A stretch of DNA of 64,000 nucleotides, taken from the NCBI GenBank assembly GCA_919902505.1, contig CAKKRE010000028.1, positions 10,530 to 74,529 on the forward strand. Direction: 5' to 3'. Position 1 is the stretch's first letter. Every line of letters begins with the position of its first letter. Source of the DNA: Nitrospiraceae bacterium (lineage in GTDB: Bacteria > Nitrospirota > Nitrospiria > Nitrospirales > Nitrospiraceae). The notes under the pieces are model-generated. The model did no database searches. It was not told the origin of the DNA and was given only the letters and a program-made list of their open reading frames with translations. This document shows, in pieces, positions 11,453-31,334 of the stretch. Made by a program: the position numbers and the translations under genes.

Positions 11453-12199
11453 ATGCAGTGCCAAAAATGCGGATGGGAACAGGGCGACGAACAGGTTGAG
11501 TGTGCTCGATGCGGAGTGATTTTCGCGAAGCTCGTCAAAGCGTCACGGCCCGGTTCAATCGCTAGGCCGCGTCCACTGGTTCAGGACTCGGCCTGGTTCA
11601 GACTCGCCGGGGACTGGCTGCTCACGACGGAGGAGTCCGTCAATCCGTTCCACTTCGCCGGGCGGGTGCTGGTGTTTTTCGTGCTCGTCCTGTGGGGCTG
11701 GCGCTTCATGACCACGCCGCTCGACACGAACTATACGGGCGAATCGTTTTTGCATTTGGTCAATCTGCCGTTCCATGAAGCGGGTCATCTGCTCTTCATG
11801 CCCTTCGGGCGATTCATGACGATCCTCGGTGGCAGTCTCGGACAGATCCTCATGCCGCTGGTGTGCCTGGGCACCTTTCTCCTCAAGACCCGCGATCCGT
11901 TCGGTGGATCAGTCGCCCTGTGGTGGACGGCCGAGAACTTCATGGACGTCGCGCCCTACATCAACGATGCCCGCGCGATGGATCTCCTGCTGCTCGGTGG
12001 GTTCACCGGCAAGGAAGTCGATGCGCACGACTGGAACAATCTCCTCACCATGCTCGGCTGGTTGCAGTATGACCATGGTCTGGCGAAGCTGTCGTACGGC
12101 ATCGGGACGGTGTCGATGCTGCTTGCGCTCGCCTGGGGCGCGATACTCCTGCATCGACAATACCGGCTAGCCACTCGCGTCCTCCCGCGCCCTCCTTGA
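11453..12199 (+). CDS. Zinc-ribbon membrane protein with an HExxH motif (M50B-like)
   Basis: CQKC..CARC at the N-terminus; FHEAGH in a hydrophobic helix; several TM segments. Confidence 0.75.
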   Translation: MQCQKCGWEQGDEQVECARCGVIFAKLVKASRPGSIARPRPLVQDSAWFRLAGDWLLTTEESVNPFHFAGRVLVFFVLVLWGWRFMTTPLDTNYTGESFLHLVNLPFHEAGHLLFMPFGRFMTILGGSLGQILMPLVCLGTFLLKTRDPFGGSVALWWTAENFMDVAPYINDARAMDLLLLGGFTGKEVDAHDWNNLLTMLGWLQYDHGLAKLSYGIGTVSMLLALAWGAILLHRQYRLATRVLPRPP

Positions 12200-12232
12200 A
12201 AAGATCCGGCACATCGGGCAGACTGCCGGACT

Positions 12233-12715
12233 ATGCGTACCTTGGCGTCGCTCTGCCGCATCGCTGCAGTTCCGATCTTGCTTGGCGTCGGTCTCATGGC
12301 GGGTCAGGTCCATGCCGACGAGGGCGCGTCGCGGTTCGTCTTGATGCTGGACGGCGAAGCGGTGAAAGATTCGGCGAGTGGGCTGGTGTGGGAGCGCGAA
12401 CCGGATTACCTGTTTGACGTATGGGATCGCTCAGTCGCCCGATGCGCCACGAAAACCGTCGGCGGGCAGCAGGGCTGGCGCGCCCCGAGCATCGACGAAA
12501 TCAAAACGCTGGTCGATCCCGAGCAGCAAGATCCTTCGTTGCCCGCGGGGCACCCATTTCGCAATATCCGCTCCGGCATCTACTGGACGGCCACAGCCCA
12601 TCCCAAGGATGACATCGTGGCCTGGCAACAAAGTTTCTTCTCCGGACAGGCTGTGACCGATCAGAAATCCGGCATGCGTCGTCTCTGGTGTGTGCTGGGT
12701 GACGCGCGCAAGTAA
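12233..12715 (+). CDS. Exported DUF1566 (Lcl C-terminal) domain protein
   Basis: Signal peptide; VKDSASGLVWE, GWRAPSIDEIKTL, YWTAT and RLWCV pattern. Confidence 0.85.
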   Translation: MRTLASLCRIAAVPILLGVGLMAGQVHADEGASRFVLMLDGEAVKDSASGLVWEREPDYLFDVWDRSVARCATKTVGGQQGWRAPSIDEIKTLVDPEQQDPSLPAGHPFRNIRSGIYWTATAHPKDDIVAWQQSFFSGQAVTDQKSGMRRLWCVLGDARK

Positions 12716-13052
12716 CCGGTCCGATATCGCCGAGGGCCACTTCCCCTGCCCTCGCGCGATCCACTTTGCCTGAAAAGTTCTCCATTCTTGGATCCAGGAG
12801 ATACTGTTCGGCTGCACGTACTTATTTCCCCGCCTGGGAAAGGTGGTCGCTGTTATCCCGAATTACGGATTCGTGTCGCCGGAACGATTGCTGACTTGCG
12901 TGTTCCGGAATCATCCTCGATCCGCACGTGCGACCACCTCGGCGGGTGCATAGGGCGGCCCCTTCCGGCCCAAAATATCGAAACCGGTGTCGTACGTTGG
13001 TTGTGAAGTGAGGTGGTTCACGGTCGGGATGCCAATCCTGATATCCGTTCGT

Positions 13053-13067
13053 GTGCAATTTTTGCAG
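13053..13067. promoter_or_regulatory. Candidate enhancer-binding-protein site TGCA-N5-TGCA
   Basis: gTGCAattttTGCAg, about 120 bp upstream of the -24 element at 13175; same motif as 18637 and 18681. Confidence 0.55.
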
Positions 13068-13173
13068 CACGATATCCTGGATCTCCGCAGGATCAGTGCG
13101 ACGGCGATGCAATCGAGCCATCTTAACTGTCCAATTGCTTATAGATCCAATAGATTTCCTAACCTGGACAGTA

Positions 13174-13189
13174 AGGCATACGAGTTGCT
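13174..13189 (+). promoter_or_regulatory. Sigma-54 (-24/-12) promoter candidate
   Basis: AGGCATACGAGTTGCT: GG-N10-GC with GGCA and TTGCT; 65 bp upstream of the ORF at 13254. Confidence 0.65.
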
Positions 13190-13253
13190 TAGGTCAGCAG
13201 CGGAATAGTCGCATCCTTTAAATATGAGCGGATCGGAATAGGAATGTGAAGTT

Positions 13254-13442
13254 ATGGAACCGACGGATCATCCTTGTGAGCGGTGTGCTCGAACCGACGG
13301 GCGGCTCATTTTCGACCAGTGGAGCAAACTGCTGCTCTGCGAAAATTGCTTCGAGCGCATGAGGCGGCAGCAGGCATGGTCTCTTCTGCGTGAGGCTGAG
13401 ATGCCTGAGGGGACAAGCTGGGTCATCCCCAGGCATGAATGA
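13254..13442 (+). CDS. Small Cys4 zinc-finger protein (copy 1)
   Basis: CERC-x17-CENC; paralog immediately downstream. Confidence 0.65.
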   Translation: MEPTDHPCERCARTDGRLIFDQWSKLLLCENCFERMRRQQAWSLLREAEMPEGTSWVIPRHE

Positions 13443-13454
13443 ACTAAGGAGGGA

Positions 13455-13649
13455 ATGAAAGTGGAGGAGTCTTCTGTGATCTCGAAAGATCGACAATCCG
13501 CCGCGATCATGCATTGCGAGCGCTGTGCCAGGCGCTCTGTCCAACTATGCTTCGACGACACCAGCCGGCAAGAGAGCTGCTCCGAATGCCTGAATCGTTT
13601 GACCACGCGAAGAGGATTTATCACCAGGCCGGCGAAGCCAAGGCAGTAA
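13455..13649 (+). CDS. Small Cys4 zinc-finger protein (copy 2)
   Basis: CERC-x17-CSEC; AAGGAGG RBS before the ATG; shares CERCAR and LxFD with copy 1. Confidence 0.65.
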   Translation: MKVEESSVISKDRQSAAIMHCERCARRSVQLCFDDTSRQESCSECLNRLTTRRGFITRPAKPRQ

Positions 13650-13756
13650 GGATCCCCCATGGCTCGCTCCTCTCTCCTGCTCGCGACGGGGCTGTCCCTC
13701 ATCACGCCGGACCTGTGCGGCGCGATCCGGGACGGCGTGCTCCCTGAGAGACTCTT

Positions 13757-15436
13757 ATGCCCGGTCGCTATTTAGAACTGAAGCCGGTTCGCAGCACCCT
13801 GTGGGGGGAGGTTTCCCGGCTTGCGCTGGTGATCGGCCTCGAACAGCGCGTCCTCATGCTTATCGTCTCCTACGCCTTGGCCATCGCTCTCTTCTCCCTG
13901 GTCGTTCCCCTGACCGTGCAGGAACTCGTCAGCACCTTTGCCTTTTCGATCGAGCCGGTCATGATTGTCACCCTCACGCTGATCATTCTGATCGGACTCC
14001 TCTTCATCGGTTTCTTCCGGGTCTTTCAGACGAGCGCGACGGAAATACTCTTTCAGCGGCTCTACACCCGTATTGCTATCGCCATGACGGAGCACCTGCC
14101 CCGGGTACGGGAAGAAGTGTTCGTGCCCAGCTACGCGAACTACTTTGGAGAAGCGGAATTATTGCCGCGCGCCGTGGTGGTCGTGCTGGTGGACCTGATC
14201 AATGTTTTCATCTCAGGTGCTACGGGGCTGGTGATTCTCGTCGTCTATCATCCGTATTTCCTTGTGTACGACGCCTTCCTGCTCGGTGGATTTGCGCTGG
14301 TGCAATTCACCTCCGGGCAAGGAGGGGTTCGAGCGACGCAGACGGTCTCACAACACCATTACGATCTCATGACCTGGATGCAGGATATCGCGCAGAATCG
14401 CCTTCATTTCAAGGCCACCCAGAGCGCCCCGTTACTGCTGAATAAAACCGACCGCTTGTTGGAGTCTTACCTTACGGCGCGAAGGGCTCGCTCAGGGGTA
14501 CTGACCTGGCGCCAGTACATCAGCACGGTGATCTGGGAGGCGATTTGCCATAGCGGCATGATCGGCATGGGCGGATGGCTGCTGTCGATCGGGCAGATCA
14601 CGCTCGGTCAGTTCGTCGCGGCCGAAGTCATCGTCGGCACGCTCCTTCTGAACCTCGATACGGTGACGCGTCGAATCTATGCCGTGACCTATATCGTGAC
14701 GTCTTTCGATGAGCTGACGCGGGTCTTCTCTCTTCCGAAAGATGATCTGAGGGAGGAGGCGTCATTCTCGCGGTTGCCCGATCCCGCCATCCACGGTCTT
14801 CATGTGACCTGCAAAGATGCGGGCTTTGCCTATCCCAACTCCCCACCGATCATTGAGGGATTCAATTTGGAGGTGGCTTCCGGGGAAAAGGTGGCGGTCA
14901 TTTCTCAAACCAGCACGGGCAAATCCACCCTCGCTCTCTTGCTGGCCGGTCTCTCTCGCCCGACCACCGGGGTGGTTCGATTCAACGATGTGGATTTGCG
15001 CGATATGACCATGGACGATATCAATGCCGCTCGAGCGCTGGTTCTCGATTCGCATCTGACGTTGTTCGGAGGGACGCTGGAGGAAAATATCTCACTCGGA
15101 CGGCCGTCGGTCCGGTTCGAAGACCTCCGCTGGGCGCTGAGGTTCGCGGAATTAGATGAGGACGCCGATAGATTGCCGCAGGGCCTGGAAACTCCGACTC
15201 TGGCAGGGGGGAAGCTCTTCACGAAGAGTCAGATTCTTCGCATTCTGGTCGCCCGCGCGATCGTCACGAGGCCGCAATTGCTCATCTTCGACGGGACGCT
15301 CCATAACATGGCGCCGGATCTGAGGCAGATTCTGCTGCGGCGACTCTGTTCAAAAGAGGAAGCGTGGTCGGTGATCTTCGTCACCAATGACCCTTCCATC
15401 GGAGAATATGTCGATCGCCGTGTCATGCTGGGGTGA
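13757..15436 (+). CDS. ABC exporter-type half transporter (TMD+NBD) with degenerate ATPase motifs
   Basis: Multi-TM N-terminal half with GQITLGQFVAAE; Walker A SQTSTGKST, signature FTKSQ, Walker B LLIFDG. Confidence 0.85.
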   Translation: MPGRYLELKPVRSTLWGEVSRLALVIGLEQRVLMLIVSYALAIALFSLVVPLTVQELVSTFAFSIEPVMIVTLTLIILIGLLFIGFFRVFQTSATEILFQRLYTRIAIAMTEHLPRVREEVFVPSYANYFGEAELLPRAVVVVLVDLINVFISGATGLVILVVYHPYFLVYDAFLLGGFALVQFTSGQGGVRATQTVSQHHYDLMTWMQDIAQNRLHFKATQSAPLLLNKTDRLLESYLTARRARSGVLTWRQYISTVIWEAICHSGMIGMGGWLLSIGQITLGQFVAAEVIVGTLLLNLDTVTRRIYAVTYIVTSFDELTRVFSLPKDDLREEASFSRLPDPAIHGLHVTCKDAGFAYPNSPPIIEGFNLEVASGEKVAVISQTSTGKSTLALLLAGLSRPTTGVVRFNDVDLRDMTMDDINAARALVLDSHLTLFGGTLEENISLGRPSVRFEDLRWALRFAELDEDADRLPQGLETPTLAGGKLFTKSQILRILVARAIVTRPQLLIFDGTLHNMAPDLRQILLRRLCSKEEAWSVIFVTNDPSIGEYVDRRVMLG

Positions 15437-15545
15437 GTGTAGGCGGGCGTTGGATGTGTCCCGGCACACAGAGCGTTCGGCTATACAGCCTCAGTCCTGC
15501 GTGGTAGCATGAAACCCTGCTCGAATCTTCCTGTAGGACGCAGGT

Positions 15546-16943
15546 ATGTTTAGACCTATTTCTGAAGCCGCTCTCCTCCGAAGGGCTCCCTATCGGTTGA
15601 TCGCGGCGGTGCTGTTGATTTTGGCCTTGGTCGTTTCCGTCATCCTGCTCTTCAGTTTGGAACAGGAGAAACTTCTCCTTCAGGGCGTTATTCAAGGCAA
15701 GACGGCTCCGACGGAGTTGTTTCCAGCGCTCTGGCAGTCGCGCCGCGACTTGACGCTGGTGGCGCTCCTCGTTTTTCTGGTGAGTGCGATCGGGATCACC
15801 GCGGTCATCACGTTTCTGCACTATGACAGCACCATACGAACCCTCGAAGAAGTGAAGGGGCTGGCGCGCAACATCCTCGAGAGCATTCCAACCGGTGTCC
15901 TGACGCTGAACCGCAGCGGCATGATTACGGCCGTCAATCCCTCGGCTGAGGCCGTGTTGAAACGTGCGTCGCTCGACTTGCTGGGCCACTCGTACGAATC
16001 CGTCTTTACGGAGGGCGATACCATCCGCGGGGCGCTTGATGCAGCGCTGCGGATCCATCGGCACATGAGTCAGAAAGACTTGCCCTATGAAAGCCGCGAT
16101 CGAACCCTGCACACCATCCGCGTCAGTACGGCCGAGTTGACCGGAGACGATGGACGGCCCGCCGGCGTCATTCTCCAGGCACAGGACGTCACGGAATGGC
16201 TGGCTCTTGAACGGAGAGTCCGGGTTGCGGAAAAACTGGCGGCTCTTCACACGCTATCCGCCGGGGTGGCGCACGAGTTGCGCAATCCGTTGAGCGCGAT
16301 CGATTTGAATTTGCATCTCCTTGAGGAAGAATTCAACGAGCAGGGGGGGGCGGCGAAGCAGGCCGCTCATTACCTCCGCGTGTTGAATGCCGAATGCCGC
16401 CGCCTGTCGGTGATTCTCGATAACTTCATGAAGTTCGCGCGACCCGGCTCCCTGGGTCTCCATGCGGTGGATTTGCCCGCCTTGATCGAACACATCGTGG
16501 CGCTCATGCGGTTCGAAGCGGAGGAGCGTAAGATTCAACTTGAGCCACGGGTGAGCAAGGACATGTCCCCGGTGCTGGGTGATGAGACGCAAATCAGCCA
16601 GGTCTTGGTGAACATCGTCGTCAACGCGTTCCATGCCATGCCGAATGGTGGGCGGTGCTGTATCGCTACGGAAGAACGCCCGGGGGAAGGGAAGCGCTGG
16701 GTAGAGATTGTCGTGAGCGACACGGGTATCGGTATTGAACAGGAAGACCTGCCGCGACTGTTTGAGCCCTTCTATACGACCAAGTCGGGTGGAACCGGGC
16801 TCGGCCTCGCGATCGCCTACCGGATTATGCAGGATCATGGCGGGACCATTCATGTGACAAGTGTGCCTGGAAACGGGACCCAGGTGGTCATGCAATTTCC
16901 TGTTGCTGTCGATCATCAGCAGGCGGTTGCGGTGGGATTATGA
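15546..16943 (+). CDS. Sensor histidine kinase (2 TM, PAS, HisKA, HATPase)
   Basis: H-box AHELRNPL, N-box NIVVNAFHAM, DTGIG, FEPFYTTK, GTGLGL; PAS starting at NILESIPTGV. Confidence 0.95.
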   Translation: MFRPISEAALLRRAPYRLIAAVLLILALVVSVILLFSLEQEKLLLQGVIQGKTAPTELFPALWQSRRDLTLVALLVFLVSAIGITAVITFLHYDSTIRTLEEVKGLARNILESIPTGVLTLNRSGMITAVNPSAEAVLKRASLDLLGHSYESVFTEGDTIRGALDAALRIHRHMSQKDLPYESRDRTLHTIRVSTAELTGDDGRPAGVILQAQDVTEWLALERRVRVAEKLAALHTLSAGVAHELRNPLSAIDLNLHLLEEEFNEQGGAAKQAAHYLRVLNAECRRLSVILDNFMKFARPGSLGLHAVDLPALIEHIVALMRFEAEERKIQLEPRVSKDMSPVLGDETQISQVLVNIVVNAFHAMPNGGRCCIATEERPGEGKRWVEIVVSDTGIGIEQEDLPRLFEPFYTTKSGGTGLGLAIAYRIMQDHGGTIHVTSVPGNGTQVVMQFPVAVDHQQAVAVGL

Positions 16944-18298
16944 CGCAAGGGGCGCATATTCTCGTCGTAGACGATGAGGTCAATATCCGGGGCGCGTTAG
17001 TGACGCTCCTTGAAAAGAAAGGCCACCATGTGCGCGGGGCAGGGACAGGAGAAGAAGCGCTGGAGGAGCTTGATGCCGCCGCGGCTGATCTGGTGATGAC
17101 CGACCTCAAGATGCCCGGGATCGGCGGAATGGAGTTCCTTCGTCGTCTGAAGGAGAAGTGGCCGGAGACGGAAGTCGTGGTCATGACGGCGTATGGATCG
17201 ATCGATACGGCAGTGGAGGCCATGCGATGCGGCGCGTACGACTATCTCACCAAACCCATCGATCGCGAGCGGTTTCCCATCGTGGTCGAGAAAGCGCTGG
17301 ATCGCCATGCGCTGGCGACGGAGAACAAACAGCTCAGGAGCCGCCTGGACACACGCACACGCTTCGATCAGATGGTCGGTGACAGCGAGCCGATGCGGCA
17401 CGTTTACAACATGGTTGAGATGGTGGCCGAGAGCGATGTCACGGTGTTACTGACGGGGGAAAGCGGTACCGGAAAGGAACTTGTCGCCCGGGCGATCCAT
17501 CATAGGAGTGCCCGGGCGAATGGACCGTTTGTCACGCTGAACTGCGGAGCGTTACCAGAGAACCTGTTTGAAAGTGAACTGTTCGGCTACGACAAAGGGG
17601 CGTTTACCGGAGCGATGACCACGAAGCTGGGGCGATTCGAACTCGCCCATGAGGGAACGCTGCTTCTGGATGAAGTCGGCGAACTATCGTTAAAATCGCA
17701 GGTGGATTTCCTTCGTGTCTTGGAGACGAAGGAATTCAGACGCCTGGGCGGAACCAAAGTGATCAAGGTTGATACCAGGATCATTGCCGCCACGAATCGC
17801 AATCTCGAAGCAGCCGTCAAGCAGGGTGACTTTCGCGAAGACCTCTACTATCGATTGAACGTCGTCCCGATCCACCTCCCGCCGCTGCGCGAGCGTGCGG
17901 AAGATATCCCGCTGCTCGTGAACCGGTTTCTGATCGCCTTCTCGACCCAGTATCGCCGCGAGCCAAAGGAGGTGTCACGCGACGCCATGCGGTTGCTCCG
18001 CCTCTATGCCTGGCCCGGGAATATTCGCCAGCTCCGAAATCTCATGGAGCGGCTGGTGGTGACCGTGAAGGATGCAACCATTCAATCGGAACACCTCCCC
18101 GGGGACATTCAGGCCAGCAAGGAGGATGCTCGCACGATGCTCGTGACGCTGGGGACGCCCCTGGAACAGATCGAACGGGATGTCATCCAACGGACATTGG
18201 CCGAAGTGACGAATCATCGAGAGAAAGCGGCCAAACTCCTCGGCATCAGCCTCCGTGCATTGCAGTATAAAATCAAGGAGTACGGCATCCGCGAATAA
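16940..18298 (+). CDS. Sigma-54-dependent response regulator (NtrC/AtoC family)
   Basis: REC domain (VVDDE, TDLKMP), GESGTGKE, ELFG..GAFTGA, C-terminal Fis-type HTH; 4-nt overlap with the kinase. Confidence 0.96.
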   Translation: MTQGAHILVVDDEVNIRGALVTLLEKKGHHVRGAGTGEEALEELDAAAADLVMTDLKMPGIGGMEFLRRLKEKWPETEVVVMTAYGSIDTAVEAMRCGAYDYLTKPIDRERFPIVVEKALDRHALATENKQLRSRLDTRTRFDQMVGDSEPMRHVYNMVEMVAESDVTVLLTGESGTGKELVARAIHHRSARANGPFVTLNCGALPENLFESELFGYDKGAFTGAMTTKLGRFELAHEGTLLLDEVGELSLKSQVDFLRVLETKEFRRLGGTKVIKVDTRIIAATNRNLEAAVKQGDFREDLYYRLNVVPIHLPPLRERAEDIPLLVNRFLIAFSTQYRREPKEVSRDAMRLLRLYAWPGNIRQLRNLMERLVVTVKDATIQSEHLPGDIQASKEDARTMLVTLGTPLEQIERDVIQRTLAEVTNHREKAAKLLGISLRALQYKIKEYGIRE

Positions 18299-18349
18299 CG
18301 TGTGCCTTGGCGCGACCATACAGCCAGAACCGAACGAGGTTCCATGCCG

Positions 18350-18545
18350 CTAGCCCGCATTATTCATGACGGTTCGTCACGAAATCGCTGAGGCGCGTCG
18401 CGAGACCGGCGCGCGGAGTCCGGAGGCCCCGACGCGTACTCGTGCAGTACGTGGAGGGTCCGATGGGCGAGCCCGCCGGCCGAAGGCTCGTCGCAGCAGC
18501 GGATCAGCGGTTGCAGTAGAAGCGCTCATGAATAATGCGGGCTAG
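18350..18545. mobile_element. MITE-like element with perfect 20-bp terminal inverted repeats
   Basis: ctagcccgcattattcatga (18350-18369) / tcatgaataatgcgggctag (18526-18545); CTAG at both ends; no transposase; inner hairpin cgtactcgtgcagtacg at 18435-18451. Confidence 0.8.
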
Positions 18546-18636
18546 ACGGTAGGCTCAGGCCGCCCACAGTGGGAGTCTGGACCGTGAAACGGCTCGCGCG
18601 CAGGATTGTCGGCCGGGTTTGATGTCACTTGTCCCT

Positions 18637-18695
18637 CTGCAAGAAATGCAGTCGTCGAATCGCTGAAAATCGGAATCTCGCTGCAGAATTTGCAG
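18637..18695. promoter_or_regulatory. Tandem palindromic enhancer sites CTGCA-N5-TGCAG
   Basis: ctgcaagaaatgcag (18637-18651) and ctgcagaatttgcag (18681-18695), 44 bp apart, about 110-155 bp upstream of the -24 element. Confidence 0.7.
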
Positions 18696-18790
18696 AGGCC
18701 TCTCCCCCACGTTTGTAGGAACACTCACGCCAATACTCTAAGTCCTCGATTTGTTGCGCATCGCGCGCATCGATCTCCTGACTTACTTTT

Positions 18791-18806
18791 TGGCATTCCC
18801 CCTGCA
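18791..18806 (+). promoter_or_regulatory. Sigma-54 (-24/-12) promoter
   Basis: TGGCATTCCCCCTGCA: GG-N10-GC; downstream of a sigma-54 activator gene and of the tandem palindromes. Confidence 0.7.
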
Positions 18807-18971
18807 ATAGCCTCGATCTGTCACGACCGGCCTCTCCATGATGTGCGCAGGATGACTACGCTGTCCGCGCATGGAGAACCGCCGTATCAGCTCGGCCCGC
18901 CCTTCTTTCGAATGGGTGGGTGGTGCAACCGCCTGTGGGCAGCTTGATCAGACTACGGAAAGGAACGGCAC

Positions 18972-19661
18972 ATGGAGTCAATGGGAAAGATGACGTTGGA
19001 ACGAGTAATCGATGTGGGCCCTGCCGGTTTTCATCCTCCATCGGCGATGGAACTGGGTGTCACACATCCTGATTCTGGATCCGGACTGCTCTATGGCCGC
19101 CATGCCCAGCAAGATGAGGTGATCGCAGAGTCCGCAAGGCAATTGTTCACCAGGAAGAATCCGACGATCTTCCCGGGGCCGTTGTACTTATGGGCCTGGC
19201 ATCCGGAATGGATCGCCAAGGGACACGCTCTGTTGAGGCTTGCCGCCGAGATCCCCGGAGTCATGATCATTCCGATGCCGGACTATCGACCTAAGTATCC
19301 AAAAATCGATCCAGAAGAGGTCATCAATCCGAATCATCCGAACCTGACGATTTGGGGAAACAAGATCGAGGTGGCTCTGTTCATCGGCATTCACTGTCAC
19401 TACGCCAACCTGGCGCTACGCATGGTGCGGGCGGGAACGAATTGCCTCACCGTGGCCTTCTGCCACGACATCCATGAAGACGCCATGCTCAGTGTGCAGG
19501 ATCTCGATGTGAAGCAGATGGATCACATCATTGATATTTTTCGAACGGTTCGGAAGGAACTCGGAATCGAGATGCCGAAAAACGGGCAGACCGTCCGTTT
19601 GACCGAGACGCAGATGCGCGCAAACCATGGGGTCGAGCGAGTGAATCCATGGCCAGCCTGA
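18972..19661 (+). CDS. CO_dh/ACDS-epsilon family protein, ForD/PorD-like subunit of five-subunit 2-oxoacid:ferredoxin oxidoreductase (copy 1)
   Basis: KNPTIFPGPL.LWAW, PDYRPKYPKI, INPNHPNLTI, GIHCH; paralog at 22185; family assignment is from recall, not a search. Confidence 0.7.
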   Translation: MESMGKMTLERVIDVGPAGFHPPSAMELGVTHPDSGSGLLYGRHAQQDEVIAESARQLFTRKNPTIFPGPLYLWAWHPEWIAKGHALLRLAAEIPGVMIIPMPDYRPKYPKIDPEEVINPNHPNLTIWGNKIEVALFIGIHCHYANLALRMVRAGTNCLTVAFCHDIHEDAMLSVQDLDVKQMDHIIDIFRTVRKELGIEMPKNGQTVRLTETQMRANHGVERVNPWPA

Positions 19662-19718
19662 TGGGGAGTGTCAGACTTAGGCGGAAAGGCAGCGAGCCAA
19701 CAGTGCAGGAATCCGAGC

Positions 19719-20009
19719 ATGCCGATGAACATTGAGAATCCTGAGAAACCACCCGCGCTTAGGCACTATGTACCAAGCGAGGAATGGATTGCGCGAATCA
19801 GTCGCCTGCAAGATACGCTGACCGTGTGCCCAGCGGATATTCCGGCACGGTGCGAATTAGCAACGCTCCTGGAAAAGCTGGAGCAACCGGAAGAGGCCTT
19901 GGTTCATTGGCAAGTCGTGCTTGCCTGCGATCCCAACAGTCTCAACGCGCGTGAAGGAGTGGCTCGCTGTCGTCTTCAGGCAGGCCGTCCGCTACAGTCC
20001 CGTACGTGA
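19719..20009 (+). CDS. Small TPR-like protein
   Basis: ARCELATLLEKLEQPEEALVHWQVVLACDPNSLNAREGVARC fits a TPR helix pair. Confidence 0.6.
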   Translation: MPMNIENPEKPPALRHYVPSEEWIARISRLQDTLTVCPADIPARCELATLLEKLEQPEEALVHWQVVLACDPNSLNAREGVARCRLQAGRPLQSRT

Positions 20010-20427
20010 GAGTGCGCATGCCTACTCTCTGGGGTTGTTTCGATCAAGTCGAAACAAGCCTTCCGGGGACTTGTTGGATCCTGCTCAGGTCTCTGTTGCT
20101 CGGGGCACGGCGATCCCATCCGGGCCTATCTCGGAGAGCAGGCCCTCATCGCGAGAGGACCGGAACGGGTAGAGCTTTCACGCGTGAAGGTGGGGGAATT
20201 TGTAGAAGTCACCTATCACCGGGGGCACGCTGGTTTTCATGGAGGCCGACACCATTGATGTCCGTCCCGACTAGGACGTTGCGCCCGAAGAAAGTGAGGA
20301 AGGCTAAGTTTGGGTTTGCGAGCGCCAAGACACATGGGAGGCCGGCACGATGAGACGACAAGGAAATCGAGGCCAACAGCGGTCTGGGGAACGCGACGTA
20401 CGCAGTCAAACAGGGAGACGTAAGCAT

Positions 20428-20706
20428 ATGGTGAAGGACAGGAACATCGTGGTTGTGCGGTATCCACGAGGTGCGACCGCTCTCATCTGGCTTGATCCGG
20501 CCAGTCGAGCGGTTGTAACCAGCCATGCCGGGTTGAGTGCTCTGCTTCACCAGGGAGTGAGGGACTGGGGCGGCCGCCTGGTATTTCCCGAAAGCGGCCA
20601 AGACTTCTTAAGGGCGGTTTATGATCGCCTCTTCATCAATGGCTGCGCCGTCCAATGGATGAGTGCGTCGGCTACCGTCGATGTTCAACGAAGTTACCGT
20701 GTCTAG
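20428..20706 (+). CDS. Hypothetical protein
   Basis: ATG after a GGGAG-like RBS; protein-like composition; in line with the operon. Confidence 0.55.
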   Translation: MVKDRNIVVVRYPRGATALIWLDPASRAVVTSHAGLSALLHQGVRDWGGRLVFPESGQDFLRAVYDRLFINGCAVQWMSASATVDVQRSYRV

Positions 20707-20722
20707 CGCGGATCAAGTCGAT

Positions 20723-22159
20723 ATGGCTCCCTTCACATCCTGGCTTCCTTCTCCTTCCACGCAAGACTTCGATCTGGTCGTCAAAGTTGCAGGATCGGGT
20801 GCGTCACCGCTCCATCAGGATTGGCTGCCTCTTGCGCATATCCTGATCGATCATGGATTGACGGTGATGGCCCAACATCAGCGTCTGAACGGCCACTCCG
20901 GCGACTTTGTGCTGCATCTTCGCATGGCCGTTCAACCATTCCATTCAATGGGACATGGATGCGACGTCCTCGTCCACGTGGGGGACCATGCGCCGGAATT
21001 TTGGCGCTTCGATCTCCAGCCAGGAAGCGTGCTTCTCTGGGAACCTCCAGTGGAACGACCGCTCTATCCCGTCGTTCCCGAGGGAGTGATTACGTACCCG
21101 CTGCCTCTTTCGGATCTCTCTGCCCCTTACGGCGAGGGGGTGTCCGGAAAGGGACTCGCCGCGCTGGGAGTTCTGTTGTGCTTGCTCGGATGCCCTCAGG
21201 AGACTCTTCATCGTGTCGCCCGGCTGTTGGCGGCGCCAAGATCGTTCGCCGCCGGAATTGAATTCGCCCACTATGAGATTGCGAAACGCGATGCGTATTG
21301 TCTTCCGCTTTCCGCAGACGACCGTGGCCAAGGTCGGATCCTGCTGGCACCGGAACAGGCGACGATGCTCGGGTTCGCCATCAGTTTCTGCGAATGCGGA
21401 ACGGGTTGTGATCGTGAGTTGCTCCAGTCACCGGCAGAGTGGATGCGCAGACACCTGGGGATTGCCGGGGGCATGGTATCGGTGCTGCAGAGCGAGAGGC
21501 ACCCCGATGTGCAAGTGTTTCGAGGACCTCAAGAAAAGGTGGTGGCCCTCTTGGGTGGGGATGACCGCGCGATAATGTCCTGCCTTGCCGGGTCGCGAAT
21601 CCTCGTGGCCGCCGACGTCATGGATGTCGTGAAGCTCTTGATTGAGGCCCACGATCTGATCCGAAAAGGACTGAGCGGGAGCGTCGTGGTCTTGGTCGAT
21701 GACGTCGTCGCCAGGCGCCATCAAAGCGTCGATCTCAGTGCCTTGATCGAGATGGTCCGGCCGAGAGGGGCTGATGTACGAGGTGCGATCATGACAGTTC
21801 AATCCGATTTGCCGGTTAGGCCGGCTGATCGGGACCAAGAGGCTGGGGCGGACGTGGGCTTTTTCTCCTGGGGGGCAGATCAAGGGGTAGTTCGAGACGC
21901 AGTGGGGCTCTGTCGACAATTTGGCCTCAACGTAGCTGGCTTGTATCCGAAAGTCGTTGTGCCGCTGCCGCAAGCGGAATTGGAGATGTTTGCCAGAACC
22001 GTCAAGCGCATGGTCCTGGTCGAATCGAGCCGGAGGCATGGGTATGCTGAGCGGATACGGGCGGCATGCTCGTTCCGGCCTACGGTACTCACATCGCTGC
22101 CCGGAAAGTCGCTCACACCGATGGATATTTTTCTTCGAGAAGGGTTGGGGGCCGTATGA
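20723..22159 (+). CDS. Degenerate KorA-type 2-oxoacid:ferredoxin oxidoreductase alpha(+gamma)-like protein
   Basis: Gamma-like N-terminus (LVVKVAGSG..GCDVLV) and PFOR-II C-terminus (ADVGFFSWGADQGVVRDAV..VVPLP..VLVE); YPITP, EDEIAA and TSGPG are absent. Confidence 0.7.
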   Translation: MAPFTSWLPSPSTQDFDLVVKVAGSGASPLHQDWLPLAHILIDHGLTVMAQHQRLNGHSGDFVLHLRMAVQPFHSMGHGCDVLVHVGDHAPEFWRFDLQPGSVLLWEPPVERPLYPVVPEGVITYPLPLSDLSAPYGEGVSGKGLAALGVLLCLLGCPQETLHRVARLLAAPRSFAAGIEFAHYEIAKRDAYCLPLSADDRGQGRILLAPEQATMLGFAISFCECGTGCDRELLQSPAEWMRRHLGIAGGMVSVLQSERHPDVQVFRGPQEKVVALLGGDDRAIMSCLAGSRILVAADVMDVVKLLIEAHDLIRKGLSGSVVVLVDDVVARRHQSVDLSALIEMVRPRGADVRGAIMTVQSDLPVRPADRDQEAGADVGFFSWGADQGVVRDAVGLCRQFGLNVAGLYPKVVVPLPQAELEMFARTVKRMVLVESSRRHGYAERIRAACSFRPTVLTSLPGKSLTPMDIFLREGLGAV

Positions 22160-22184
22160 ACCACGATGGAAAGGAGTTGAAGTG

Positions 22185-22763
22185 ATGGAACCGTACGAGA
22201 TGACCATTGGACCTGAAGGGTATCTGCCTCCGTCTGTTTCCGAAAGGGGCGTCGTTGGTCCCTCGAAGGGGGAGGGGCTTGTCATGGGAAAACGGGTGCC
22301 GGAGCAGCAGGCGATCGATGAAGTGGCGCGCCGACTACTTGCGGCCAAGAACCCCACGATCTTCCCGGGTCCGTTGGTTCTTTGGGCCTGGAATGAACAG
22401 GCGATGCGCGAGTCCAAAGTGGTCAAAGCGTTGGCGGAAGCGGTTCCGGCGAAGCTTATCCCGATGGCCGATTACCGGCCGAAGTATCCGAAGATCGAGG
22501 CGGAGCGGGAGATCAATCCGAACCATCCGAATCTGACGATCTGGAAAAACAAGATCGATGTCTGCTTATTTGTGGGTGTACATTGTCATCAATCCAATAT
22601 TGCGCTGAAGATCATTCGTGGCGGCACGGACTGCTACACCATCGCGCTCTGCACCTTTAGCGGCGACGATGAGGCGCACATCACGATCAGGGACTTGACC
22701 GTTGATACCATTCAGCGCATTGTGGATTCAGTCCATCGGCAGAAAAATTCACGGTCCTCATAG
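22185..22763 (+). CDS. CO_dh-family ForD/PorD-like protein (copy 2)
   Basis: AAGGAG RBS at 22171; GPEGYLPPS, KNPTIFPGPLVLWAW, DYRPKYPKI, INPNHPNLTIW, GVHCH. Confidence 0.72.
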   Translation: MEPYEMTIGPEGYLPPSVSERGVVGPSKGEGLVMGKRVPEQQAIDEVARRLLAAKNPTIFPGPLVLWAWNEQAMRESKVVKALAEAVPAKLIPMADYRPKYPKIEAEREINPNHPNLTIWKNKIDVCLFVGVHCHQSNIALKIIRGGTDCYTIALCTFSGDDEAHITIRDLTVDTIQRIVDSVHRQKNSRSS

Positions 22764-22815
22764 GGACGCTGGAGGATTGTCTCTGATGGCTACCTTCGTC
22801 AAGAGAGGATATGTC

Positions 22816-23745
22816 ATGCGATATGTACTTGCCGCAATTGTCGGGGTGATGGTTGCAATGGGCTCATCCGCCTGGGCCTATGAGGAAATCACGGTTGCAG
22901 AGGGTGGGACCCTGAGGGGCATCGTAACGCTCGAAGGGACTGTCCCCAAGCCGAAAGGGTACAACCTCACGACCTTGCCGGACCAATTCTATTGCGGGCG
23001 CATTTCGGACGGACAAGGCTGGCGCATTTTGCAGCCGTTCCAGGTCGGACCGGCGAGCGAGTTTCGCGACGTCGTGGTCTATCTGGAAGGCATCGACAAG
23101 GGCAAACCCTTCCCTGAAGGGGGCGTGCCGCACATCGAAGCGAAAGACTGCCTGTTCGAACCGTTCACCACCATCGTGCGGGACGATCAATCGGTGACGG
23201 TGGTCAACATGGACCCCGTCATGCACGACATTCAAGCCTATGAAACGTCGCATTTGGGCGCGCGCGTGTTGTTCAACGTGCCGCTGCCGATGAATCCGCA
23301 GCATCCGCGCAACCTCAAGGATCGCAGCGATGCCGGGATGTATCACAAACACATGGCCGGCCCGCCGATGAAGCAATTGGTGAATCTCAGCAAGGGCCGG
23401 CGGATTTTCGTCATGCAATGCGGCTTCCACGCGTACATGGAGAGCTGGGGGGTGGCCGTCACCAACCCGTACTTTGCCAAGACGGACGAGCAGGGCCGGT
23501 TCACCCTGACCGATGTGCCGGCGGGTACCTATAAGCTGGTCGTCTGGCACCCCTATGTCCGTACCGCGACCGAACAGACCGTCACGATCGGCCCGAAAGG
23601 GACGGTGGAGGCCCATGTCGTGGTCCCGGCCCCGATCGGGCGGCTCTATGCCAACGAGGTGATGGAGCATCCGTACAATCGCTACAACGTGCTCGAAGAA
23701 ACAAAGCGAGAAATCGATCCGATGATCCACAAGCAGGAGCATTGA
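22816..23745 (+). CDS. Exported protein with cupredoxin-like and carboxypeptidase-regulatory-like domains
   Basis: Signal peptide; MHDIQ and CGFHAYM; C-terminal TDEQGRFTLTDVPAGTYKLVVWHPY. Confidence 0.75.
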   Translation: MRYVLAAIVGVMVAMGSSAWAYEEITVAEGGTLRGIVTLEGTVPKPKGYNLTTLPDQFYCGRISDGQGWRILQPFQVGPASEFRDVVVYLEGIDKGKPFPEGGVPHIEAKDCLFEPFTTIVRDDQSVTVVNMDPVMHDIQAYETSHLGARVLFNVPLPMNPQHPRNLKDRSDAGMYHKHMAGPPMKQLVNLSKGRRIFVMQCGFHAYMESWGVAVTNPYFAKTDEQGRFTLTDVPAGTYKLVVWHPYVRTATEQTVTIGPKGTVEAHVVVPAPIGRLYANEVMEHPYNRYNVLEETKREIDPMIHKQEH

Positions 23746-24371
23746 AGCGGGAGTGAGAGGGTGTGAAGCGCCTAATACTATCTCGTGGAGCAGGATTGCT
23801 GATAAGCGATGCGTGTGTGGTGTAGGCGAGGATCTCGAGAGAGGGAGCTTGTCAAAACCAGAAACTGCGAATCGCCAGATCGATGGGTTAGCCATTCTGC
23901 TGCATTGAGCTTCCTCCATGCCGTCATTACACTGACCTTTTCTCCAGCGTCTGCATGCGGCTGAATCTGACATCTGAAATGTTGCCGGAACTGGCCCATC
24001 TAACGGTCGGAATCCTCGCCTTGTATCATCCAATCGGTAGTCTCTTGCAGGCCTATACCGGCAAGGCGATTGTGCCACTGGTGCCGTCCCCTTTTCCGTC
24101 ATGAAAAGAGCATGAGGGGGCCGGTTCGATTGGAGCCGGCATGGTCCCACGGGGGAACCTGAGTTTGCATGAAATGGTTGCATGGGTTCTGCTCTATGTC
24201 CGTTGTGCACGGTCGCTTTTCGGATAGCAGTTGATGTGTCACACCGTATGTTTTAAGGTTCCTGGAGGCTGTCAAGATTCTCCGGTTCACATCTCGAAGA
24301 CCAGGGGGGAGTGATAGAATGCATTCTGTGTCTGGTTGTGGAGGGGCCTCCTTGAGGTTCTTGCTGCAACG

Positions 24372-26399
24372 ATGACCGTTCTACTCGTCGGCCTACTGGC
24401 GATCTACATAGCCGGCGTCATCCTTCCTCCATGTTTTCCTGGGAAAGCGAGGATTCAGAACCTCGTCGCACATGGGCTTGCGGCGGCGGCAGGTTTCGTC
24501 GGTATCGTCCTCGGTGTTGCGGGCCTCCTCTCAACGGCGCCTCTGACCCTCTCGCTTGCTTCCAACATTCCCCATCTCAGCTTCGCAATCCGTCTGGACC
24601 CGCTGGCGGCGTTCTTCGTGCTGACTATCTCGCTGGTGGGGCTGGCCGCGTCGATCTATGCGTCCGGCTACGTCGTCGAATTCTCGGGCCGAGTATCGGT
24701 GGGATTGTTGGGCTCCCTCCTCAACGGGTTTTTGCTCTCCATGACCCTGGTGGTCCTGGCCGACAACGGGTTCTTCTTCCTGATCCTCTGGGAAGTCATG
24801 TCCCTGTTGTCCTATGTGCTGGTTGTGACGGAGCATGAGAAGCCCGGCGTCCGGGAGGCGGGGTTGTTCTATCTCATCATGACGCACGTCGGTACCGCGT
24901 TCATCATCCTCACGTTTTTGATCTTTTTCCAGGAAACCGGCTCATTTTCCTTCGAGGCGTTTCGCCACCCCGACCAGCAGCTTCCTGAGGGATTGCGATC
25001 GATCGCGTTTTTCACGGCCTTGATCGGATTCGGCGCGAAGGCCGGCATCGTTCCACTGCACGTGTGGCTCCCCTATGCGCATCCCGCCGCCCCGTCCCAC
25101 ATCTCGGCCCTAATGTCGGGGGTCATGATCAAGACCGCCATCTACGGGTTGATCCGGATGTACTTCGATTTCATGGGCGGGGAATTCCCCTGGTGGTGGG
25201 GCTTCACGTTGTTGGTCGCCGGCACGGTGTCGGCGCTCCTGGGTGTCATGTACGCCTTGATGGAACATGACCTGAAGAGCCTGCTCGCCTTTCACAGTGT
25301 GGAAAACATCGGCATCATTCTGCTGGGGATCGGCGCAGGCATGATCTTCCACACCTATGGCTTGCATGAACTGGCGGCGCTCGGATTACTGGCGGGCCTG
25401 TACCATACCATCAACCACGCGGCGTTTAAGGCGTTGCTGTTTCTGGGCGCCGGGGCGCTGCAGTTCTCCACCCATACGAGACACATCGAGGAGTACGGCG
25501 GCTTGCTCCGGCGCATGCCCTGGACGGGCGCCTTTTTTCTGATCGGCGCCGTCTCCATCGCCGCGCTTCCGCCCACCAATGGGTTCGTCAGTGAGTGGCT
25601 GGTCTTTCAGAGTTTGTTTCTCAGCTTCCAGCTGCCCACTCTGTTTCTCAAGTTGATGTTGCCGATTGCCGCCGCGATGTTGGCGTTGACGGGCGCGCTG
25701 GCGCTGGCGTGTTTTGCGAAGGCGTTCGGGATGTCGTTTCTGGCGCAGCCGCGCAGCGTCCATGCCCGCCATGCGACGGAAGTCCCCTGGTCGATGCGGG
25801 TTGGGATGGGCTTCTTGGCAGGGCTCTGCATGGTGCTGGGGCTGGCGCCCATGCTGGTCGTTCCGTTGTTGGATCGGGTCACGACTCCATTGACCGGTGC
25901 GGCCATCAGTTCACAGGTGCTGGCGCTCGACGGCTGGGTGGTGGCGCCGGTGACGGTGGAGTTTTCGAGCATCTCGACGCCGGTGCTCGCCATGCTCCTG
26001 GTCGGGGCGGGAGCGTTGGGGCTGCTGATCGCCCGACTCTGCGGGAAGGGGCTGCGCGCGCGCTATTACAAGACCTGGGGTTGCGGGCTGAATCTGACGC
26101 CTCGCATGGAATACACCGCGACCGGCTTCGCGCAACCGGTCAAGCAGGTCTTTGAAACCATCTACCAGCCGACGGTGAAGCTGGAGCAGGAGTTTCTGGA
26201 GCAATCGAAGTACTTCATCAAGCATCAGCGGTTCGAGTCGCACATCGAGCCGGTCTTCGAGAAGTACCTCTACCGGCCGGTGGTGGCATGGCTGTTGGCG
26301 GCAGCCGACCGGCTGCGCATCATTCAGGCCGGCAGTCTCCATCTGTATCTCACCTACATTTTTGTGACGCTGGTGCTGTTGTTGTTATGGGCGGGGTAG
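24372..26399 (+). CDS. hyfB: Hydrogenase-4 component B-like antiporter subunit (Ehr complex)
   Basis: Many TM helices; WEVMS, KAGIVPLHVWLPYAHPAAP, ENIGII, GGLLRRMP; alternative start at 24336. Confidence 0.9.
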   Translation: MTVLLVGLLAIYIAGVILPPCFPGKARIQNLVAHGLAAAAGFVGIVLGVAGLLSTAPLTLSLASNIPHLSFAIRLDPLAAFFVLTISLVGLAASIYASGYVVEFSGRVSVGLLGSLLNGFLLSMTLVVLADNGFFFLILWEVMSLLSYVLVVTEHEKPGVREAGLFYLIMTHVGTAFIILTFLIFFQETGSFSFEAFRHPDQQLPEGLRSIAFFTALIGFGAKAGIVPLHVWLPYAHPAAPSHISALMSGVMIKTAIYGLIRMYFDFMGGEFPWWWGFTLLVAGTVSALLGVMYALMEHDLKSLLAFHSVENIGIILLGIGAGMIFHTYGLHELAALGLLAGLYHTINHAAFKALLFLGAGALQFSTHTRHIEEYGGLLRRMPWTGAFFLIGAVSIAALPPTNGFVSEWLVFQSLFLSFQLPTLFLKLMLPIAAAMLALTGALALACFAKAFGMSFLAQPRSVHARHATEVPWSMRVGMGFLAGLCMVLGLAPMLVVPLLDRVTTPLTGAAISSQVLALDGWVVAPVTVEFSSISTPVLAMLLVGAGALGLLIARLCGKGLRARYYKTWGCGLNLTPRMEYTATGFAQPVKQVFETIYQPTVKLEQEFLEQSKYFIKHQRFESHIEPVFEKYLYRPVVAWLLAAADRLRIIQAGSLHLYLTYIFVTLVLLLLWAG

Positions 26400-26463
26400 G
26401 GCGAGGCAGCGGGCTGTGCGTAGGGGTTGTGCCTGGTCGTTCGATCACTGAGTGACGGGAGCT

Positions 26464-27420: not shown

Positions 27421-27424
27421 CGCG

Positions 27425-28090
27425 GTGTCGGCTTCCACCCAATTGGGCTCACAACTCGTCGATCTCTGCTCGGTCCTGCTGCTGCTCTGTTGTTTTGCCA
27501 TCGTGGCGCAGCGTCGATTGTCGGCCTGTGTGGATCTCTTTGCGCTGCAGTCCGCGTTTCTGGCGGCGACCGCCGCGCTCGTCGCGTTTCTGACCGGACA
27601 TAAGCACATTTATTTCGCGGCGGCCCTGACGATCGTCATCAAAGTGATCGTGCTGCCACGCATTCTGCGGAAGGTCATCGAGCGTCTGAATGTCTCCCGT
27701 GAGCTGGGGATGAATATCAATATTCCGGCGGGCCTGCTGATCTGCGGCGCGCTGGTGATCGTCGCCTTCTTTATCACGCAGCCCATCATTCCGCTCGGCT
27801 ACCTGCTGACGCGCGATTCTCTGGCCATTGCGCTGGCCATTATTTTGATCGGATTTTTCACCATGATCGCCCGCCAGAAGGCGATCACGCAGATGGTCGG
27901 CTTCCTGGTCATGGAGAACGGAGTGTTCCTGGGAGCCACGGCGGCCGCGTACGGCATGCCGCTGATCGTTGAATTGGGCGTCTTCTTCGATGTGTTGGTG
28001 GCCGGGTTGATCGTCGGCATTTACACGCATCGGCTGCAGGATACGTTCGATAGCGTGGACACCAGCACGCTGACGGTGCTGAAGGAATGA
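27425..28090 (+). CDS. hyfE: HyfE-like membrane subunit
   Basis: GFLVMENG, PLIVELGVFFD; position in the operon. Confidence 0.88.
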   Translation: MSASTQLGSQLVDLCSVLLLLCCFAIVAQRRLSACVDLFALQSAFLAATAALVAFLTGHKHIYFAAALTIVIKVIVLPRILRKVIERLNVSRELGMNINIPAGLLICGALVIVAFFITQPIIPLGYLLTRDSLAIALAIILIGFFTMIARQKAITQMVGFLVMENGVFLGATAAAYGMPLIVELGVFFDVLVAGLIVGIYTHRLQDTFDSVDTSTLTVLKE

Positions 28091-28127
28091 GGCGGTCGAT
28101 GACGCATGTCCGGCGAGTAGGTGCTGT

Positions 28128-29660: not shown

Positions 29661-29664
29661 CCGT

Positions 29665-31257: not shown

Positions 31258-31334
31258 GAAACAGGCATTCAGCAATCCGCCCTCAGCAGCCGGCTCTGAG
31301 CTGAGAACTGATCGCTGATGGCTAAGGAGGCGCC

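Follow-up and report, generated by a model that had tools for sequence, protein, structure and literature searches.

What is encoded by two very short reading frames that stand one behind the other ahead of a two-component regulatory system in Nitrospira? The question is raised by positions 13254 to 13649 of a 64-kb stretch of DNA from a Nitrospiraceae bacterium (assembly GCA_919902505.1, contig CAKKRE010000028.1, positions 10,530 to 74,529; the whole stretch is called the window below), where a preliminary description had pointed out two tandem open reading frames (ORFs), each carrying two CxxC knuckles. We found that ORF1 and ORF2 are real, conserved and co-transcribed genes, and that their promoter, their upstream activating sequence (UAS) and their linkage to a kinase and its activator are conserved as well. 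As to their role, we favor the explanation, which we consider to have about an even chance of being correct, that the two microproteins are self-regulated cytoplasmic accessory regulators of the PAS-domain histidine kinase and NtrC-type activator encoded downstream of them. They probably tune the signaling of this pair and not the neighboring ATP-binding cassette (ABC)-like protein.

Two paralogous Cys4 microprotein genes

ORF1 (13254..13442, forward strand) encodes a protein of 62 amino acids (aa) with a pI of 5.6, which begins with MEPTDHPCERCARTDGRLIFDQWSKLLLCENC, carries its cysteines at C8, C11, C29 and C32, and has an amphipathic helix after the second knuckle. ORF2 (13461..13649, forward strand) encodes 62 aa when read from a GTG codon, has a pI of 9.1, contains IMHCERCARRSVQLCFDDTSRQESCSEC and possesses a basic tail, RRGFITRPAKPRQ; in the 62-aa numbering its cysteines are C19, C22, C40 and C43. 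In both proteins we could read the motif CERCAR-x4-L-x-FD-x7-C-x2-C given in the preliminary description, with exactly 17 residues from the second to the third cysteine, or in more general terms C-x2-C-x17-C-x2-C with L-x-[FYW]-D between the knuckles. A single BLASTP comparison of the two proteins gave 13/35 identities without gaps (E = 2e-7). Because a match of this significance extends over 35 ungapped residues, the pair represents paralogs and not a chance coincidence of CxxC motifs, which upholds the earlier claim of two tandem paralogous Cys4 ORFs.

The start codon of ORF2 required a revision. In the mechanical listing, ORF2 runs from an ATG, 13455-13649, and comprises 64 aa. The Shine-Dalgarno sequence AAGGAGG (13446..13452, forward strand) lies 8 nucleotides (nt) from the GTG at 13461 and 2 nt from the ATG at 13455. 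In 15/16 orthologous loci with an ORF2-like (B-type) gene, a start codon is found exactly 18 codons before the first cysteine, in most of them preceded by a GGAGG-like Shine-Dalgarno sequence; the counterpart of the ATG is lost in loci L004 and L006, and the 18-codon start persists where the ATG is lost. Given the spacing of the Shine-Dalgarno sequence in the window and the conservation of this start position across loci, we place the start of ORF2 at GTG 13461, and the gene is most likely best annotated as 13461-13649 with 62 aa. The perfect ribosome-binding site noted earlier is therefore present and serves the GTG, not the ATG, and of the lengths first given, 62 aa holds for ORF1, whereas 64 aa for ORF2 probably has to be replaced by 62. 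The tail of ORF1 after REAE is not under constraint, since its reading frame changes in L004 and L005.

Homologs of the two proteins are few and easily overlooked. A collection of 5.8 billion proteins contained nine homologs of ORF1 with 76-100% identity and one homolog of ORF2 with 87% identity; an exact entry for the ORF2 of the window was absent from the same collection. More distant members of the ORF1 type (A type) came from the other searches. Gene callers left ORF2 uncalled on contigs L005 and L085, though both carry it, in agreement with the earlier remark that such ORFs are often missed by annotation. When a profile built from ORF1 and ORF2 was searched against 1.84 billion protein representatives with no word filter (E ≤ 0.001), only 27 proteins were retrieved, nearly all of 47-121 aa. 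We also scanned species-representative genomes with the ABC protein and then searched their six-frame ORFs with a hidden Markov model; in many Nitrospira genomes, that of N. defluvii (FP929003.1) among them, this located microproteins just 5' of the ABC ortholog.

The conservation of these homologs is that of proteins. Among 28 diverse members, three cysteines and the aspartate are invariant, and the fourth cysteine and the leucine are conserved to at least 90%; 27/28 representatives keep the cysteines and their spacing, and the interval between the knuckles is free of gaps in the alignment. The ratio of nonsynonymous to synonymous substitution rates (dN/dS, Nei-Gojobori), taken only where dS exceeds 0.3, was 0.06-0.29 for ORF1 and, with dS above 0.8, 0.15-0.25 for ORF2. 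At the first knuckle of ORF2, the window has the cysteine codons TGC and TGT, whereas L001 has them as TGT and TGC, a synonymous exchange. The preliminary description had proposed to judge the ORFs by homologs with conserved cysteines, by translation signals and by a dN/dS away from 1, and all three turned out in their favor: the homologs retain the cysteines, Shine-Dalgarno sequences and start positions are conserved, and dN/dS stays within 0.06-0.29.

Assembled metatranscriptome contigs from four runs, which derive from related strains and are 90-99% identical to the window, cover both ORFs and bridge ORF1 to ORF2 as well as ORF2 to the ABC gene, consistent with one transcript for all three genes. 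Coverage of the window sequence begins near 13144-13254, and one X4 contig reaches at least 70 nt 5' of the -24 promoter element described below, into strain-specific sequence. Judged by their conservation pattern, ORF1 and ORF2 are real, conserved protein-coding genes that are in all likelihood translated. Long ORFs on the strand opposite the microprotein genes were judged spurious, and an Rfam scan of 12000-19500 returned zero matches to RNA families. A third small ORF (13659-13775, 38 aa, MARSSLLLATGLSLITPDLCGAIRDGVLPERLLCPVAI), which overlaps the start of the ABC gene, was considered as a peptide gene and rejected: it is kept only in very close relatives, its frame is broken in L001, and the spacer between the B-type gene and the ABC gene is unconserved in more distant loci. 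From its sequence, it is probably not a gene.

By the searches above, the family is confined to Nitrospira-type genomes; neither Pfam nor NCBIfam holds a model for it, and all members checked bear the source name 'hypothetical protein'. It comprises three subtypes, A, B and C, which share C-x2-C-x17-C-x2-C and a [FYW]-D 9-10 residues past the second cysteine. The A type, represented by ORF1, reads E-P-P-D-x-x-C-E-R-C-G ... L-L-C-x-x-C and continues into an amphipathic helix that ends with QAWSLLREAE; it is acidic (pI 4.9-5.6). The B type, represented by ORF2, reads K-Y-C-[DE]-R-C-A-R-R-S ... L-C-x-[DE]-C and continues into a short helix and a tail rich in Arg; it is basic (pI 8.4-9.7). The C type, C-x-x-C-G-K-x-L-x-M-G-I-W-D-x-R-T ... 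C-x-x-C-I-P-P-L-P, is absent from the window. Every member is hydrophilic, and in the 28-member alignment the N-terminus is the least conserved part, with no leader common to the members. Two-finger proteins occur naturally: P0137 (L087 6001-6366) is a C+B fusion of 121 aa directly 5' of the kinase gene, and L013 10669-11079 encodes a tandem double finger 3' of the activator gene. Two distant B-type relatives of 47-52 aa, P0152 (L086 6001-6144) and P0140 (L089 1439-1597), share another neighborhood, consisting of a Cpn60-like gene, an epimerase, PNP_UDP_1, a 122-aa zf-dskA_traR protein and a methyltransferase, and no kinase, UAS or sigma-54 promoter was found near either of them.

The structures predicted for the two proteins agree with each other. 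The AlphaFold2 model of ORF1 (predicted local distance difference test score, pLDDT, 76) shows a hairpin at 19-28 and a helix at 30-49, and that of ORF2 (pLDDT 77) has the same architecture; the cores of both models reach a pLDDT near 90. In each, a knuckle is followed by a beta-hairpin and by a second knuckle that opens a helix of 15-20 residues. This is the order of elements of the treble-clef class, and the modeled fold is treble-clef-like; each ORF would encode one small Cys4 metal-binding module, with zinc as the most probable metal. A Foldseek search of both models against the PDB placed B-box, RING, LIM, GATA and ClpX N-terminal fingers nearest, none at E < 0.5; because every match had E ≥ 0.5, only the fold class can be assigned.

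Comparison with named families yielded no assignment either. Pfam and NCBIfam scans of both ORFs and the 28 members produced only sub-threshold matches to generic zinc ribbons, and no match to rubredoxin or Fe-S families. Of the haloarchaeal small zinc-finger families, DUF7685 scored 16 bits on ORF1 against a Pfam threshold of 27 and gave weak, sub-threshold matches in 13/28 members (best E = 2.4e-4); DUF7573 and HVO_2718 were likewise sub-threshold. The CxxC-x17-CxxC domain TIGR04272 of NCBIfam did not match ORF1 or ORF2, and its only match, the C-type half of P0137, reached 10.4 bits against a cut-off of 36 (E = 0.41). In the PDB, the best match by sequence was to ribosomal protein S14 type Z (E = 0.2); it has a shorter spacer and was rejected. 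The ClpX N-terminal C4 domain was also rejected, with an hhalign probability of 0.8% against the E. coli ClpX N-terminus; an integrative model containing ClpX, 9a5x, tops the Foldseek list of ORF2 at E = 0.59.

The closest resemblance in spacing is to the DksA/TraR finger (PF01258 / PS01102), which has the same C-x2-C-x17-C-x2-C arrangement, gap-free in 28/28 aligned members, and a second knuckle that likewise leads into a helix. A single hhalign comparison of the family profile with a DksA finger segment gave a probability of 64% over 32 ungapped columns. Unlike in DksA/TraR, the signature residues I, R and P between the knuckles are absent, their place being taken by x4-L-x-[FYW]-D-x7, and an N-terminal helix or coiled coil is missing: in the proteins of the window, 7-18 residues come ahead of the first cysteine, a part that varies across the family and is predicted to be unstructured. 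PF01258 itself did not match ORF1 or ORF2 at E ≤ 1, nor does it figure in the list of 25 families obtained for the 28 members.

Promoter, candidate activator site and conserved neighbors

The sigma-54 promoter that had been proposed ahead of ORF1 is supported by comparison of loci. A -24/-12 element, AGGCATacgagTTGCT (13174..13189, forward strand), lies 65 nt before the ATG of ORF1. Taken alone it is a match with two mismatches, of which about 29 are expected by chance in the window; its position and sequence, [ACG]GGCA[CT]-N5-TTGC[TC], are kept in 19/21 related loci (group 1). The element sits 5' of the first microprotein gene or, where there is no microprotein, directly 5' of the ABC gene, and it persists despite wholly different upstream genes, for example in L001 and L007. 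A scan for sigma-70 promoters and terminators gave nothing above chance.

By aligning the upstream regions of related loci, we also found the palindrome TGCAA-N3-TTGCA, a candidate UAS. Its copy in the window, TGCAATTTTTGCA (13054..13066, forward strand), lies 120 nt 5' of the -24/-12 element and is the sole perfect occurrence in the 64 kb. As negative control, we used group 2, the paralogous ABC loci composed of HlyD, an outer-membrane factor and two ABC-like genes, in which no microproteins, UAS or promoter were found. The palindrome is located 98-133 nt 5' of the promoter in 19/21 group-1 loci and in 0/15 control loci, and the same counts (19/21 and 0/15) apply to complete UAS and promoter pairs. 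In L015, L020 and L025, a separate pair precedes an A- or C-type gene. The palindrome of the window is contained in a 99-aa ORF on the minus strand (12822-13121), which has no family match and almost no coverage by RNA contigs and may be spurious.

A second regulatory region (18638..18806, forward strand) follows the activator gene. It contains UAS-like palindromes at 18638-18650 and 18682-18694 and a -24/-12 element, TGGCATtccccCTGCA, at 18791-18806, and it precedes a CO_dh/PFOR-like cluster whose first position is 18972. Most group-1 loci carry two or three UAS-like sites 3' of the activator gene, and in six of them (the window, L007, L009, L010, L020 and L037) these sites are followed by a -24/-12 element with at most two mismatches. 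The cluster itself (18972-31853) includes two CO_dh-epsilon-like genes (18972 and about 22207), a TPR protein, a PFOR-domain-II-like protein of 498 aa at 20663, and HyfB-, NuoH-, HyfF-, NuoCD- and NuoB-like genes at 24336-31853. By gene content, the latter correspond to the group-4-hydrogenase-like complex of Nitrospira, whose role is unresolved and for which a link to low oxygen is suspected (PMC12542776). From these sites, the region 18638-31853 looks like the regulon of the activator. A palindrome with one mismatch is also present at 24170-24182, ahead of the HyfB-like gene.

The kinase and the activator are encoded next to each other on the forward strand. The kinase (15546..16943, 465 aa; Pfam PAS, HisKA and HATPase_c) is a membrane PAS histidine kinase that has two transmembrane helices and only a very short outer loop, and the activator (16940..18298, 452 aa; Pfam Response_reg, Sigma54_activat and HTH_8) is a sigma-54-dependent response regulator of the NtrC/AtoC type, whose best NCBIfam model, AtoC, scores below its cut-off. 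Together they resemble the AtoSC and ZraSR types. Between ORF2 and the kinase lies the gene of the ABC-like protein (13757..15436, forward strand, 559 aa), a half-transporter whose nucleotide-binding domain is indeed degenerate, as had been described: Walker A reads SQTSTGKS, Walker B reads LLIFDG and lacks the catalytic Glu, and Asn stands in place of the H-loop His. It belongs to a Nitrospira family of three paralogs, the other two of which stand elsewhere in the genome in a cluster of HlyD, outer-membrane-factor, ABC, ABC and 4HB_MCP genes (L048 3054-6632). None of the three has the Walker A glycines, the Walker B Glu or the H-loop His; ATP hydrolysis by them is unlikely, and an export-type machine without an evident ATPase, as the paralog cluster would be, is odd in itself. 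The protein of the window matches only ABC_tran in Pfam and has no peptidase domain; its best NCBIfam models, bacteriocin and type I secretion exporters, score far below their cut-offs.

To which of these neighbors the microproteins are tied was resolved by a metagenome scan with the B-type motif, which gave 78 loci, 59 of them informative (at least 400 nt downstream). The gene after the B type is the kinase in 38/59 and a full or partly assembled ABC gene in 12/59; in 4/59, the B type is followed by a remnant of about 55 codons of the ABC 3' end and then by the kinase, and in the other five the gene is undetermined. Kinase orthologs were found 3' of the B type in 53/59 loci, and also in L087, L090 and L092; in 54/59, the B type stands directly 5' either of kinase and activator or of ABC gene, kinase and activator. 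Even the divergent B-type genes P0137, P0138 and P0172 lie directly 5' of orthologous kinase and activator genes, with no ABC gene, and these kinases and activators are 59-72% and 71-82% identical to those of the window. The remnants (L112 2445-2612, L113 2394-2561, L115 830-979 and L116 1718-1879) read as deletion scars and indicate that some lineages have lost the ABC gene of the operon. Because the ABC gene and the microproteins are each missing from some loci, the kinase and activator form the constant core; on this sequence evidence, the ABC-like protein is one add-on and the microproteins are another, and it is the kinase and activator that the microproteins follow from locus to locus. 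A partnership with an ABC/kinase module had been suggested earlier, and it is the kinase half, extended by the activator, that is conserved, the ABC half being the weaker one.

In lineages lacking the ABC gene, C- and A-type genes are preceded by a stand-alone receiver, by a second sigma-54 activator, or by both (L126 1223-2602 and 3883-4446; L087 3953-5741; L092 1524-3220), and L126 has a 187-aa ORF between its A and B genes, which suggests that the regulatory island of these lineages is larger than that of the window. Another part of the window (11453-12199), between an M50 peptidase gene and an Lcl_C-domain gene, encodes a 248-aa protein with an unrelated zinc-ribbon-like N-terminus, MQCQKCGWEQGDEQVECARCG (Pfam Zn_Ribbon_1, E = 0.061, non-significant).

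Accessory regulation weighed against its alternatives

With regard to function, we propose that the NtrC-type activator would bind TGCAA-N3-TTGCA and drive its own operon, the microproteins included, together with the downstream cluster, so that microprotein levels would rise along with the activator. In the cytoplasm, the microproteins would bind the kinase, probably at its PAS or dimerisation and histidine phosphotransfer (DHp) region, or the activator, and in this way provide feedback or a second input. The A and B fingers may act as pairs, because they carry opposite charges and are naturally joined in two-finger fusions, and the Cys4 site could render the module sensitive to redox state or metal supply. 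Being encoded with the kinase/activator system and apparently co-regulated by it, the microproteins show the operon arrangement of two-component auxiliary regulators. There are established cases of accessory proteins that act on the cytoplasmic domains of kinases (PMC8534201), and small zinc-finger co-regulators are found beside signaling regulators in haloarchaea, as Brz with Bat in Halobacterium and HVO_1359 with QarA in Haloferax (PMC13464002). Beyond the genes and their linkage, we infer that the microproteins bind metal, which protein they contact and in which direction they act. A further-reaching version, in which the paired A, B and C fingers are a cytoplasmic co-sensor that couples redox or metal status to control of the group-4-hydrogenase-like complex, is more tentative, and we hold it to be on the unlikely side.

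Several points weigh against the accessory-regulator explanation. Loci L009, L011 and L012 keep the ABC gene, the kinase and the activator and contain no microprotein within 5 kb, and for this reason the microproteins must be dispensable for the core system. The linkage singles out no protein as the one that is bound, and the microproteins could be a mere output of the system. The RNA evidence consists of assembled contigs from related strains, in which carry-over of DNA is possible and the 5' end of the transcript is undefined. Translation, metal content and protein contacts rest on sequence and models, and some CxxC microproteins bind no zinc (PMC11241148, as cited in PMC13464002).

Among the alternatives, the one that survives best makes the microproteins primary sensors: through reversible binding of Fe or Zn, or through a thiol redox switch, they would report oxygen, redox state or metal to the kinase and activator, a system that would control oxygen-sensitive, ferredoxin-linked enzymes. 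A role as metal or redox sensors had already been offered in the preliminary description. The four conserved cysteines would suit such a role, and so would the PFOR-like, CO_dh-epsilon-like and group-4-hydrogenase-like genes of the putative regulon, with the suspected low-oxygen relation of the hydrogenase-like complex in Nitrospira (PMC12542776). However, the predicted treble-clef geometry is typical of structural zinc sites, the PAS domain of the kinase could itself sense redox, and rubredoxin or Fe-S families found no match in the Pfam and NCBIfam scans. We regard this possibility as unlikely.

It is less likely still that the microproteins bind nucleic acid or RNA polymerase and act as co-regulators at the UAS, the promoter or the sigma-54 holoenzyme, in the manner of TraR/DksA, FlgZ or Brz. 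The identical finger spacing and the hhalign match to the DksA segment lend themselves to this idea, as do the basic, Arg-rich tail of the B type and the precedent of the zinc-ribbon protein FlgZ, which stabilises sigma-54 (PMC3372290). Yet a short, variable and predicted unstructured N-terminus offers neither a coiled coil nor a helix that could be inserted into the polymerase channel, the PF01258 model finds no match in the two ORFs at E ≤ 1, DksA/TraR structures are outside the top 50 fold matches, and the A type is acidic.

The gene order of small ORFs, ABC protein, kinase and regulator behind a self-induced promoter resembles that of peptide-pheromone cassettes, which raises the question of whether the microproteins are exported signals or bacteriocin-like peptides that the ABC protein secretes and the kinase senses. 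The exporter models that come first for the ABC protein in NCBIfam, far below their cut-offs as they are, point the same way. We consider this very improbable: there is no double-glycine or other conserved leader, the ABC protein lacks a peptidase domain as well as the catalytic Glu and His, the microproteins are predicted to fold around four cysteines, and the ABC gene is absent in 38/59 loci and reduced to a remnant in 4/59 while microprotein and kinase stay. Finally, the notion that ORF1 and ORF2 are chance ORFs in GC-rich DNA whose conservation is that of regulatory DNA or RNA, for which the missing family annotation, the skipping of ORF2 by gene callers and the long spurious ORFs on the opposite strand might be cited, has next to no credit left, being refuted as far as sequence analysis goes by a dN/dS below 0.3, the synonymous Cys-codon swap between the window and L001, protein motifs that are still kept at 25-40% identity, a distance at which the DNA can no longer be aligned, conserved Shine-Dalgarno and start positions, and the lack of any Rfam match in 12000-19500.

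Known systems and the biology of Nitrospira

The closest parallel to the accessory regulators proposed here are the haloarchaeal micro-proteins (PMC13464002), which also have about 60 aa, one domain and two CxxC knuckles, stand beside a PAS-type or two-component regulator and were proposed as co-regulators. Unlike them, the present family is bacterial, has no significant sequence match to them, is tied to a sigma-54 activator and occurs as two or three tandem paralogs of opposite charge. The haloarchaeal motif is C(P)xCG, whereas the Nitrospira family reads C-[ED]-R-C-[AG] ... C-x2-C, has [FYW]-D and keeps the spacer fixed at 17 residues. In encoding an ABC-type membrane protein next to a kinase that has two transmembrane helices and only a very short outer loop, the locus recalls BceAB-BceS, where an ABC transporter serves a kinase as co-sensor (PMC8534201). 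It differs in that the nucleotide-binding domain lacks the catalytic residues, the operon can do without the ABC gene and has often lost it, the response regulator depends on sigma-54, and nothing in Bce systems corresponds to the microproteins.

Among bacteria, auxiliary regulators that are induced by their own two-component system include ZraP with ZraSR, MgrB with PhoQP and Sda with KinA. As in these cases, a small protein is encoded with the system or induced by it, and the shared UAS and sigma-54 promoter imply feedback. ZraP is periplasmic, MgrB is a membrane peptide and Sda is a helical hairpin, so that none of them is a cytoplasmic Cys4 finger. The kinds of protein concerned, single-domain Cys4 finger microproteins and kinase accessory proteins, are thus known, and it is this Nitrospira family that is unnamed: neither the family, nor its tandem acidic/basic arrangement, nor its sigma-54 link is described in the papers and libraries that were searched.

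Nitrite oxidation in soils, waters and wastewater plants is dominated by Nitrospira, bacteria that lend themselves poorly to genetic work. In their genomes, the microproteins have been invisible to standard analysis, since they are unannotated or called 'hypothetical' and have no family model. The locus presents a compact, conserved regulatory unit: a UAS and sigma-54 promoter, two or three finger microproteins, an optional ABC-like protein with a probably dead ATPase, a PAS kinase and an NtrC-type activator. The unit appears to control the CO_dh/PFOR-like and group-4-hydrogenase-like cluster of Nitrospira (PMC12542776), and it is small enough for heterologous rebuilding, by which the signal that controls this energy-metabolism cluster could be tested. 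The interest of the finding is moderate and that of a specialist subject, and would be higher if the microproteins were sensors controlling the group-4-hydrogenase-like complex. If they modulate the kinase or the activator, they would represent a new structural type of bacterial cytoplasmic accessory regulator, in parallel to the zinc-finger micro-proteins of haloarchaea. Should the co-sensor version hold, they would constitute a new class of kinase/activator modulators and provide the first regulatory handle on the group-4-hydrogenase-like complex.

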